Shown here piece after piece: positions 651 to 3,492 of a stretch of 3,492 nucleotides of DNA. Position numbers and translations under genes: made by a program. Location: the IMG/VR virus record IMGVR_UViG_2737471838_000002. One strand, written 5' to 3'. Source of the stretch: a virus (lineage: Duplodnaviria > Heunggongvirae > Uroviricota > Caudoviricetes). Under the pieces are notes generated by a model. That model was not told the origin of the DNA. It saw nothing but the letters and a program-made list of their open reading frames with translations, and did no database searches. The first letter of the stretch is position 1, and each line of letters begins with the position of its first letter.

Positions 651-1133
651 TCATCTAACGGTATCAACTGCACTCGCCATCGCAGGATTAGCCTGTAAAC
701 GGGCCTGCAATGAAACAGCGGCCAGCGCCATCAGCCGTGTTACAGAGTTAATGCTGCTGATAGCATCACGACGACCTGCACTGGTTTTTACATCGCCGGA
801 TACCGCACCTGCAGCAACACGCCCGATCTCTGCGGTTGCACTCATGACATAATGCGGCAGTTTCTCTTTTGCCACCTCATTAATCGGTACACATGGCAGG
901 CAGTGAATCTGTGCCAGAAAGCCATCTACCAGCGTTGAATCTTCAGTCAGATCGGTAAGCAACCAGATTTCTGGTGCGGTTAATAAATGAGGTTGAGCTG
1001 GGTTCAGCTTGTTCCGCAGAATCTGTACATTCATGCCTGCACGTTCTGCCAGTTGCACCAGGTTGTGGCGCAGTGCGAATGCACGACAGGCTTCGTCAAA
1101 ATGTGGATGTTTGGAAACTTGGTAATCAAACAT
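651..1133 (-). CDS. cII: Phage 186 CII-like (CP76 family) lysogeny-establishment transcriptional activator, 160 aa
   Basis: It lies immediately downstream of the apl-like gene, in the position of 186 cII. The N-terminus [19 protein letters not shown] and the segment [17 protein letters not shown] resemble the 186 CII / Pfam Phage_CP76 helix-turn-helix region as I recall it. Start moved from the track's TTG at 1139 to ATG at 1133, which has a GAGG Shine-Dalgarno at 1142-1145, 8 nt upstream. Size is close to 186 CII (about 169 aa). Confidence 0.75.
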
Positions 1134-1165
1134 GGTCAATGCCTCTGATGTATTTCAGAATCGAA

Positions 1166-1387
1166 CTAATTAAGGTTTAGATTGCATTCTGAAAGCGCAT
1201 CAACGGTCATTGCTGCTATGTTGATCATCACTTTTTCGCGTTTTTTATCTTTGCGCAGTCGGTGACGGATAAGGCGTCCATCAGCCAACATGTCATTGAT
1301 GGTATCGATGGATAGCCCTGTCAGCTCGCTATAGCGTTCAATAGTCACATGAGGGGTGGTAAGAGTGATTGAAATGTTAGGTCTCAT
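1166..1387 (-). CDS. Apl/Cox-like small DNA-binding protein (excisionase and switch regulator candidate), 73 aa
   Basis: A 73-aa ORF with an ATG start at 1387, transcribed divergently from the repressor gene and directly upstream of the cII-like gene, which is the position of 186 apl and P2 cox. The segment [23 protein letters not shown] looks like an excisionase-type helix-turn-helix. The assignment rests on position, size and this motif only; sequence similarity to Apl/Cox was not verified. The GAGG upstream is 11 nt from the ATG, which is suboptimal. Confidence 0.55.
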
Positions 1388-1459: not shown

Positions 1460-1488
1460 AACATACGATCGCACAGTGAAATCGTCAA
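1460..1488 (-). promoter_or_regulatory. Candidate sigma70 promoter for the leftward apl-cII(-ogr) transcript (pR-equivalent)
   Basis: On the - strand: -35 TTGACG (+ coordinates 1488-1483), a 17-nt spacer, and -10 TATGTT (1465-1460). The predicted start near 1453 gives a ~65-nt leader to the apl-like ATG at 1387. Its location near the repressor start codon matches the face-to-face promoter layout described for the 186 and P2 switches. Motif-based only. Confidence 0.35.
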
Positions 1489-2082: not shown

Positions 2083-2097
2083 TACCGGGAGGAAACT

Positions 2098-2289
2098 ATG
2101 CTTGGTAAGGTATTTTTTGTGGTTTTATCATGCTCTTTGTTATTAAACCCACTAACTACCTATGCTAAAAATTATCCTTGTTCTGGGAAAAAGGGAGGTG
2201 TCTCTCACTGTACCTCCGATGGAAAGTTCGTTTGCAATGATGGAACTATTAGTAAATCAAAAAAAATCTGTACTAAAAACTCGCGATAA
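2098..2289 (+). CDS. Small hypothetical secreted protein: predicted Sec signal peptide plus ~40-aa lysine-rich mature peptide with 4 Cys
   Basis: There is a strong Shine-Dalgarno GGGAGG at 2087-2092, 5 nt before the ATG at 2098, and only 15 nt separate it from the repressor stop, so it is probably co-transcribed. The N-terminus [23 protein letters not shown] has the n-, h- and c-regions of a signal peptide, with a likely cleavage after TYA. The mature part [40 protein letters not shown] is cationic with four Cys. The coding region is AT-rich. No confident family is recognised. Confidence 0.5.
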
Positions 2290-2422: not shown

Positions 2423-2451
2423 TTGACACTGGTTATACATACAGTAAAAAT
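2423..2451 (+). promoter_or_regulatory. Candidate sigma70 promoter directly upstream of int
   Basis: A perfect -35 TTGACA sits at 2423-2428. After a 16-17 nt spacer comes an A-rich -10-like hexamer, TAAAAA (2445-2450) or AAAAAT (2446-2451). The int Shine-Dalgarno GGAGGG follows at 2463-2468 and the ATG at 2476. The -10 match is weak and the call is motif-based only. Confidence 0.3.
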
Positions 2452-2475
2452 GCTCTCTACTGGAGGGCATTTTTT

Positions 2476-3492
2476 ATGGCAGTACGAAAACTCACCACAG
2501 GAAAATGGCTTTGCGAATGTTACCCCGCCGGACGTAGTGGACGTCGTGTGCGTAAACAATTCGCCACCAAAGGCGAAGCTCTGGCTTTTGAGCGTCACAC
2601 GATGGAAGAAACCGAAGCAAAGCCCTGGCTGGGCGAATCAGTGGATCGTCGGACATTGAAAGACGTGATTGAGCTATGGTTCAAACTACATGGTAAATCT
2701 CTGACAGCTGGACAGCATGTCTATGACAAACTGCTGTTGATGGTTGACGCTCTGGGCAATCCCCTTGCAACTGATCTAACCTCTAAAATGTTTGCCCACT
2801 ATCGAGATAAACGCCTGACAGGTGAGATCTACTTCAGCGAGAAATGGAAGAAAGGAGCAAGCCCGGTCACCATTAACCTGGAGCAAAGCTATCTAAGTAG
2901 TGTTTTTAGCGAACTATCCCGCCTGGGCGAATGGTCGTATCCGAACCCACTGGAGAACATGCGAAAATTCACCATCGCAGAAAAAGAGATGGCATGGCTT
3001 ACCCATGAGCAGATTGTTGAACTGCTGGCTGATTGCAAACGTCAGGACCCAATTCTGGCACTGGTAGTCAAGATATGCCTAAGCACAGGCGCACGCTGGC
3101 GAGAAGCAATAAATCTTACCCGCTCGCAAGTGACCAAATACCGAATTACCTTTGTAAGAACGAAGGGGAAGAAAAACAGAAGCATCCCTATCAGTAAAGA
3201 GCTTTACGAAGAGATCATGGCGCTTGATGGGTTCAATTTCTTTACAGACTGCTATTTTCAATTTTTATCCGTGATGGAAAAAACGTCTATCGTGCTCCCT
3301 CGCGGTCAACTGACACACGTTCTGCGCCATACGTTTGCGGCGCACTTCATGATGTCGGGTGGAAATATCCTTGCTTTGCAAAAAATCTTCGGACATCACG
3401 ATATAAAAATGACTATGCGCTATGCCCATTTAGCACCCGATCATCTTGAGACGGCTCTGAGATTCAACCCCCTCGCAACGCTAGAAGTGTGA
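2476..3492 (+). CDS. int: P2/186-type tyrosine recombinase (phage integrase), 338 aa, complete
   Basis: The N-terminus MAVRKLTTGKWLCECYPAGRSGRRVRKQFATKGEALAFE parallels the P2 Int N-terminus as I recall it (MAIKKLDDGRYEV...GRNGKRIRRKF...EAVAFE). The C-terminal catalytic region has LSTGARWREA, HVLRHTFAAHFMMSGGNILALQKIFGH and MTMRYAHLAPDHL, which supply the Arg, His-x-x-Arg and Tyr residues of the tyrosine-recombinase active site. Start set at ATG 2476 (GGAGGG Shine-Dalgarno 7 nt upstream) rather than the track's ATG at 2398, because the 26-aa extension has no counterpart in P2 Int. The stop TGA is at 3490-3492. Confidence 0.93.
   Translation: MAVRKLTTGKWLCECYPAGRSGRRVRKQFATKGEALAFERHTMEETEAKPWLGESVDRRTLKDVIELWFKLHGKSLTAGQHVYDKLLLMVDALGNPLATDLTSKMFAHYRDKRLTGEIYFSEKWKKGASPVTINLEQSYLSSVFSELSRLGEWSYPNPLENMRKFTIAEKEMAWLTHEQIVELLADCKRQDPILALVVKICLSTGARWREAINLTRSQVTKYRITFVRTKGKKNRSIPISKELYEEIMALDGFNFFTDCYFQFLSVMEKTSIVLPRGQLTHVLRHTFAAHFMMSGGNILALQKIFGHHDIKMTMRYAHLAPDHLETALRFNPLATLEV

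Follow-up and report, generated by a model that had tools for sequence, protein, structure and literature searches.

A YdcA-family peptide gene between cI and int of a 186-like prophage remnant in Escherichia coli, a candidate exported envelope or exclusion factor

Among small exported proteins of prophages, Ltp and the Cor/Llp-type proteins are lipoproteins that act at the cell envelope against incoming phage DNA or at receptors, Ltp of phage TP-J34 being encoded in the lysogeny module beside int (PMC3952083). In Vibrio phage K139 (Peduoviridae), the gene order is PL-cI-orf2-glo-int, and Glo is annotated as a "periplasmic protein; involved in phage exclusion". As for the host, Escherichia coli possesses the core gene ydcA, whose product is composed of a signal peptide and a core of 35 amino acids (aa), PCSGxKGG[VI]SHC...FVCNDG[ST]xSxSKKxC, and has no known biochemical function. 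The present analysis deals with an open reading frame (ORF) at positions 2098-2289 of a 3,492-nucleotide (nt) stretch of viral DNA (IMG/VR record IMGVR_UViG_2737471838_000002), hereafter the window, i.e., the whole stretch that was analysed. The ORF lies between the repressor gene cI and the integrase gene int of a prophage remnant and encodes a small peptide of the YdcA family. The identity of this gene and its placement in the operon are held with high confidence. As regards function, the composite reading drawn from sequence comparison, to which a probability of about 0.55 is given, is that the peptide would be a module of the periplasm that binds a polyanion and serves in lysogenic conversion or in exclusion.

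Respective to these described systems, the window peptide has the same architecture as E. coli YdcA, to which it is 51% identical overall, but it belongs to subfamily NF007463 and is prophage-borne in a lysogenic operon, whereas YdcA is the product of a core gene. With Glo of K139, it has in common a periplasmic product, here as a prediction, and a gene situated between cI and int, glo being part of the PL lysogenic operon of a P2/HP1-like phage (PMC3952083, PMC4870250). Homology to Glo was considered and rejected, hhalign giving a probability of 0.2 and Glo, with its 137 aa, being unlike the Cys-rich YdcA core, so that Glo stands as a positional analogue only. In contrast to Ltp and the Cor/Llp-type lipoproteins, the window peptide lacks a lipobox, and it bears no sequence relationship to them. 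The exclusion proteins of the Glo/Ltp/Sie2009 type make up a class by function and not by homology, and what the window peptide shares with them is an operon position between repressor and integrase and a predicted exported product. A first, sequence-only reading of the window had pointed to a faint resemblance to motifs of small secreted proteins of the DUF3761 family (PF12587); by eye, similar short motifs are indeed found (C-x-DGT-x-S-x-S and GGV), but in the opposite order, and no Pfam match was obtained at E <= 1 with either the native peptide or two circularly permuted constructs in the DUF3761 motif order. This resemblance was dropped, the family being YdcA.

The ORF and the parts of its product are as follows.

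2087..2092, + strand: Shine-Dalgarno sequence GGGAGG, 5 nt before the ATG, read from the sequence and kept in E. coli alleles
2098..2289, + strand: YdcA-family peptide gene, 63 codons plus stop (WP_001321204.1)
2098..2166, + strand: predicted Sec signal peptide, residues 1-23, cleavage TYA/KN, from hydropathy and the Ala at -1
2167..2286, + strand: mature 40-aa domain, net charge about +7, four Cys invariant in alignments A1, A2 and A4

The ORF is a real gene under strong purifying selection. The NCBIfam model NF007463 matches its product at 116.1 bits, for a curated cut-off of 93, with positions 1-58 of the 58 of the model covered, PHROG 6000 matches with an E-value of 4.6e-34, and the newer RefSeq annotation reads "YdcA family protein". 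Twelve distinct alleles were found in E. coli, the most divergent of which shows 11 synonymous changes (42.7 sites) against 2 non-synonymous ones (146.3 sites), i.e., a ratio of non-synonymous to synonymous substitution rates (dN/dS) of about 0.05. Three Yersinia species have copies whose mature peptide is 81-83% identical, the genes differing at many third codon positions, and the flanking genes are less alike (37% identity for CI and 49% for Int). The cI stop codon TAA occupies 2080-2082 and the peptide ATG starts at 2098, so that the 15-nt gap (2083-2097) and the Shine-Dalgarno sequence within it bear out the coupling to the repressor gene that the sequence-only reading had described. A promoter proper to the ORF was also sought; the nearest promoter-like site (2102-2131) lies inside the ORF with a 9/12 match and was given no weight.

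The N-terminal leader of the peptide is composed of an n-region, MLGK, with a single Lys, an h-region of 12 residues (mean Kyte-Doolittle value of 2.86) and a c-region, NPLTTYA, where positions -3 to -1 correspond to T-Y-A and the predicted cut falls after A23. Across 26 aligned homologues, the Ala at -1 is invariant and the residue at -3 is small; all 26 leaders keep the tripartite shape and are otherwise hardly conserved, and the mature core is nearly invariant. Such variable leaders, together with an invariant Ala at -1 and a near-invariant core, are the hallmark of a signal peptide that is cleaved off. The domain begins at residues 20-38 in nearly all homologues, right behind the hydrophobic N-terminus. 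The mature 40 aa comprise 8 Lys, 1 Arg, 2 Asp, no Glu, 4 Cys and 1 His, the Lys, Arg and Cys being as the sequence-only reading had counted them, and the signal peptide that this reading had noted stands as a prediction. The possibility of a lipoprotein was rejected, since the leader Cys12 is replaced in most homologues and the VLSC at residues 9-12 is too near the N-terminus and makes no lipobox. The peptide is predicted from these features to be exported by Sec to the periplasm.

The peptide belongs to the YdcA family (NF007463/PRK10040; PF27300), a family of uncharacterised function. PF27300 is recorded in the precomputed annotation of a cluster representative 97% identical to the peptide, the copy of Pfam scanned here being one without this entry. 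The core gene ydcA of E. coli (b1419, 57 aa, between cybB and trg) is a paralogue from the sister subfamily NF007462, which scores 145 bits for core YdcA, compared with 116 bits for NF007463 on the window peptide, and each protein also matches the subfamily model of the other. All invariant columns of the three alignments are present in the window peptide, including the four Cys, as is the family core pattern P-C-S-x-x-K-G-G ... F-x-C-x-D-G-x-x-S-x-S-K-x-x-C, and the two motif stretches that had drawn attention in the bare sequence turn out to be this invariant core. A profile of the mature domain retrieved 331 clusters (50% identity) at E <= 1e-3 among 1.8 billion representatives, and 743 clusters in a database clustered at 90%, where the best 120 matches are all stand-alone members. 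By genome scan, the family is spread over the alpha-, beta- and gammaproteobacteria. Most members are stand-alone proteins of 55-70 aa; some carry two or three tandem copies of the domain (P0080, P0082, P0083), and many from betaproteobacteria and Pseudomonas end in a CTGPRGGxYC tail with a weak Pfam match to PBCV_basic_adap. The mean net charge of the domain is +3.5 over 35 residues across the family and +7 in the window peptide, the lysines being conserved. As a separate observation, in 11 Acinetobacter loci (L104, L134, L136-L138, L142, L148, L152, L165, L168 and L169) a conserved gene follows the YdcA-family gene directly on its 3' side and on the same strand, encoding a product of 105-215 aa with a Gly/Lys-rich N-terminus and a C-terminal hydrophobic segment; the two genes look like a second conserved pair.

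As to genetic setting, the ORF is accessory: a moron that a 186-like prophage carries in its lysogenic operon, with cI on one side and int on the other. In phage 186 itself, cI and int overlap by 1 nt with no gene between them, and the annotated lysogenic operon, driven by pL and the CII-activated pE, comprises cI, int and orf69 up to a terminator past attP; given this empty junction and an operon that spans it, the ORF represents an insertion into the lysogenic operon. It had been proposed that a peptide of this kind is foreign to the canonical switch of 186, and this holds beyond 186 itself: among 145 deposited phage genomes with this cI type, only two, namely Haemophilus phages HP2 and S2, have a homologue. 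In these two, it is an unannotated ORF of 60 codons whose ATG overlaps the cI stop by one base (in HP2, L001 2920-3102; 2486-2668 of the record), and the order is cI, peptide ORF, a gene for a secreted protein of 254 aa, and int. The annotated HP2 gene after the peptide ORF, orf1(S), also starts with a signal-peptide-like leader. Conservation of the ORF between cI and int, on which the sequence-only reading would have been judged, extends from HP2 and S2 to the three Yersinia species and to E. coli prophages of other immunity types, where different alleles of Apl and CI are found with the cI-peptide-int order retained.

On a broader scale, the cI-peptide-int arrangement was found in 5 of 77 species-level genome loci (Escherichia and Yersinia), and in 6 further loci of these 77 a repressor with a helix-turn-helix (HTH) or HTH/S24 organisation is encoded upstream on the same strand. 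In four of these six (Comamonas avium, C. testosteroni, Aquabacterium and Methylobacterium), the repressor gene is two genes upstream; the gene in between, for a product that is secreted, a membrane protein or a lipoprotein, overlaps the peptide gene, abuts it or comes close to abutting it; in C. suwonensis and Acinetobacter lwoffii, genes on the opposite strand come between repressor and peptide gene. The S24 domain of the Methylobacterium repressor was confirmed by Pfam. This recurrence behind both CI-type and HTH/S24 repressors places the gene in a prophage-expressed operon of at least two unrelated repressor families. The view of the locus as a moron-type site also found support, since the cI-int junction is occupied by Glo in K139 and, in E. 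coli IH5, by a P-loop NTPase of 443 aa (L011 2633-3964) situated between the peptide gene and int. The latter matches the PADLOC candidate defence family PDC-S20 at 1e-171 and, being beside the peptide gene, marks the cI-int junction as a hotspot for cargo and defence genes in 186-like prophages.

A first indication of what the domain may do comes from its fusions. Among the 148 best representatives, the multi-domain members with a recognisable partner are mostly secreted nucleases, namely (i) two with SNase, (ii) one with Endonuclease_NS plus one partial, and (iii) one of the PLD type (Nuc-like, PLDc_2), and in each nuclease fusion the YdcA domain comes first, directly behind the signal peptide. 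More fusions to Endonuclease_NS and SNase are found in Methylococcales genomes. In a prophage operon of Methylobacterium oryzihabitans (L146 2650-4815), the genes for an S24 repressor, a secreted protein of 163 aa, a YdcA protein of 60 aa and a secreted SNase of 238 aa follow one another, the last two overlapping by 13 nt. Such a combination, fusion in one lineage and adjacency in another, classically points to a functional link. For a small basic module at the N-terminus of three unrelated nucleases, the simplest role would be substrate binding or tethering to the envelope.

A second indication comes from the predicted fold. Two AlphaFold2 runs, with 16 and 75 aligned sequences, gave the same small beta-hairpin with a mean predicted local distance difference test (pLDDT) score of 78-79. 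Of the checks suggested from the sequence alone, profile search and structure prediction yielded a family match above its cut-off and a consistent model. The best match in the PDB, weak but reproducible, is a lobe of Dis2 from Legionella (7muc/7mud chain AN). In profile searches, Dis2 came top with E-values of 0.12 and 0.062, below formal significance, over the Dis2 segment CS-KMGGINYC..GRLVCNNGFYS, and a second, partial match fell on the second lobe of Dis2. With Foldseek, the two models gave Dis2 a probability of 0.75-0.89, a TM-score of 0.60-0.65 and 36-38% identity, all other matches being at <= 0.12. Dis2 exhibits two similar lobes and five disulfides and is located near the outer membrane (PMC8486379); a later study treats it as lacking obvious homologues in organisms with prototypical type IV secretion systems (T4SSs) and finds it dispensable (PMC12716638). 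The likeness lies in a mini-domain of about 38 residues, periplasmic and pinned by disulfides in Dis2 and predicted to be so in the window protein, with the motif CS-K-GG[IV]xxC...G[KR][FL]VCN[DN]GxxS, but Dis2 is a secretion-machine subunit with two lobes and five disulfides, whereas the window protein corresponds to a single lobe with four Cys. It is likely that the YdcA domain and the Dis2 lobe are homologous. In the literature, no mention of the "YdcA family" or of PF27300 was found together with exclusion or nucleases; neither the repeated uptake of the gene into lysogeny operons, nor the fusion of its domain to nucleases, nor the probable link to Dis2 appears to have been described.

Taken in sequence, the proposed mechanism would run as follows. 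The ORF sits where the pL/pE lysogenic transcript runs in phage 186, and the gene would be co-transcribed with cI and its product made in lysogens, exported by Sec and cut after Ala23. In the periplasm, two disulfides would form to give a beta-hairpin mini-domain like each lobe of Dis2, which would serve as a cationic binding or tethering module for a polyanionic partner of the envelope. This partner would most likely be transiting DNA or the inner, anionic face of the outer membrane, considering that secreted nucleases of the SNase, Endonuclease_NS and PLD types have the domain at their N-terminus, that it adjoins SNase in a repressor operon and that it resembles Dis2, which is found against the outer membrane. 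As a stand-alone prophage product, it would most likely serve in the periplasm for lysogenic conversion or superinfection exclusion, by interfering with incoming nucleic acid or by changing the envelope to the benefit of the lysogen. The gene is a good candidate, by sequence, for a factor altering the lysogen envelope or blocking incoming DNA; the likelihood that exclusion would be aimed at DNA specifically is low.

Several observations weigh against the polyanion-binding reading. A consensus promoter scan of the window did not detect pL, and the peptide matches no defence model of PADLOC-DB 2.0 at E <= 0.01. In the Mcat phages of Moraxella and the Vieuvirus phages of Acinetobacter, the gene is not beside the repressor gene; it is surrounded there by genes of unknown function, ahead of a tail protein gene in Mcat17 and of a very large gene in Ab11510-phi. 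The nuclease fusions are a small minority, at about 5 among the 148 representatives and 4 among the 77 genome loci, and the majority of members stand alone. Finally, the sole phenotype reported for ydcA, which is also the sole experimental result for the family, is that its deletion makes E. coli W sensitive to 300 mM 3-hydroxypropionate, and the same study cites acid-induced, YdcI-dependent expression of ydcA (PMC7642389); this points to stress tolerance, not exclusion.

This last point opens onto the alternative that survives best, although it is considered doubtful, namely that the prophage copy would be a conversion factor for host fitness, acting like chromosomal YdcA against acid or organic-acid envelope stress with no role against phage or DNA. 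Besides the phenotype and the cited regulation, it is in keeping with the paralogy to core ydcA, both subfamily models matching, and with a cationic fold which, from Dis2, is proximal to the outer membrane and suits a role in the envelope. The phenotype is, however, a single and indirect one from one study, without mechanism; with ydcA already present in E. coli, some other rationale is needed for a second copy; and neither the nuclease fusions nor the repeated placement in lysogeny operons of unrelated phages is explained in this way.

A bolder form of the polyanion-binding reading, itself unlikely, is that the YdcA domain would be an unrecognised periplasmic module for binding or tethering DNA, common to secreted nucleases, Dis2 and hundreds of stand-alone mini-proteins, with the prophage copy as a novel type of exclusion factor that captures or misroutes foreign DNA; phage, plasmid or transforming DNA caught in the periplasm would possibly be passed to a periplasmic nuclease. 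Slightly less probable still is an adaptor or inhibitor docking on an outer-membrane complex of the host, e.g., a secretin, a porin, a pilus or a conjugation channel, and blocking entry by protein contact. The nearest structural relative is indeed an outer-membrane cap subunit of a T4SS (PMC8486379), homologues also occur on Acinetobacter and Rhizobium plasmids, and one source labels the exact protein "conjugal transfer protein", but this label is automatic and unverified, and neither T4SS nor secretin genes are adjacent in the loci examined, the neighbours of the window peptide being cI and int. Moreover, in alpha-, beta- and gammaproteobacteria alike the lysines, and indeed all of the 35-aa core, are conserved to an extreme degree, which suggests a universal ligand and not a lineage-specific protein partner. 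A secreted bacteriocin- or microcin-like peptide directed against competitors, to which the small size, the net charge of about +7, the two possible disulfides and the signal peptide would lend themselves, is very improbable, as genes for immunity, modification or dedicated export are absent beside the peptide gene in all contexts examined, the paralogue is a core gene of E. coli, the domain also occurs N-terminally on enzymes and in tandem arrays, as is usual for a binding domain but not for a toxin, and a Sec signal alone delivers to the periplasm in a Gram-negative cell.

Should the prophage copy act on incoming DNA or on the envelope, this would give a first function to a family of at least 331 clusters (50% identity) that includes a core gene of E. 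coli, provide a fold relative for Dis2, for which the literature sees no obvious homologues beyond the Legionellales, and add a compact exclusion or conversion factor of 40 aa to the repertoire of P2/186-like prophages; should it merely duplicate a host stress protein, it would be an ordinary moron. The matter is unusually easy to test, this very cI-peptide-int module being present in E. coli B, BL21 and ATCC 8739.

Turning to the prophage that holds the ORF, the chromosome of E. coli strain ZYB62 contains the 3,492 nt of the window at 100% identity; the window opens at the end of ybjL, followed by rybB, and the remainder is prophage. It is a deletion remnant of a 186-like prophage at the 3' end of rybB, in which the other features are distributed as follows.

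80-158, + strand: rybB small RNA gene (Rfam RF00110, 105 bits), abutting the prophage end
145-170, + strand: probable core of the attachment (att) site, a 26-nt direct repeat overlapping the RybB terminator
236-454, - strand: zinc-finger gene of the ogr/delta type
about 545-661, - strand: deletion junction, D pseudogene fused to truncated cII
651..1139, - strand: cII-type activator gene, 3'-truncated by the deletion (Phage_CP76, 2.8e-42; RefSeq annotation of the identical locus)
1166..1387, - strand: apl/cox-type excisionase-repressor gene, first of the divergent lytic operon (phrog_575, 6.1e-31)
1460..1488, - strand: pR-like promoter TTGACG-17-TATGTT in the cI/apl switch region, from a consensus scan only, matching the position of pR in phage 186
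1513..2082, + strand: 186-type CI repressor gene, first gene of the lysogenic operon (Phage_CI_repr, 2.8e-33; Phage_CI_C, 8.5e-27)
2423-2451: promoter-like sequence TTGACA-17-AAAAAT
2446..2474, + strand: 13-bp hairpin plus U-run, ending 1 nt before the int ATG (folding free energy -17.5 kcal/mol, z -5.9)
2476..3492, + strand: tyrosine integrase gene (Int_N, 2.5e-32; Phage_integrase, 1.6e-21)

The 26-nt direct repeat at 145-170, ATGGGTTTTTTGTTGCCTGAAATTTA, recurs about 600 nt past int (second copy at L003 10083-10108); from its location over the RybB terminator and this copy beyond int, the 186-like prophage appears to integrate in the 3' end of rybB, and it appears to supply a replacement rybB terminator on integration. 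RybB was the sole known RNA element matched in or near the ORF by an Rfam scan. The CI of the window is 32% identical to that of HP2 and likewise to that of phage 186. As a short pseudogene fragment of late-control gene D is fused to the 3'-truncated cII, the prophage genes from fil to D are all missing, and the deletion spares cI, the peptide gene and int. Strain N17 has, at this site, a 186-like prophage that is intact and encodes the same three proteins (CI, peptide and Int), and E. coli BL21 has a different deletion derivative in which cI, the peptide gene and int are identical to those of the window. Of 5426 complete E. coli genomes, 654 have the 192-nt ORF, B, BL21 and ATCC 8739 among them, and 403 relatives were found in IMG/VR viral contigs. 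These typically lie at about 1.2 kb from the end of the contig, the place expected of a gene located just inside int. Two further genes were observed in the vicinity of such modules. Just outside the window, a conserved hypothetical protein of 110 aa (WP_000974872.1; L003 9601-9933), with no match in PADLOC, is encoded past int and before the att repeat, in the position of orf69 in phage 186. The defective BL21 prophage with the identical module also has a retron St85-family effector gene (L176 1-505), presumably the retron locus of E. coli B.

Lastly, the hairpin at 2446-2474 pairs the Shine-Dalgarno sequence of int, GGAGGG; it is identical in the E. coli alleles, and its place is taken in Yersinia by a different hairpin. 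In lysogens, the hairpin may end the cI-peptide transcript or hold down translation of int; efficient expression from the maintenance transcript would then stop with the peptide gene.

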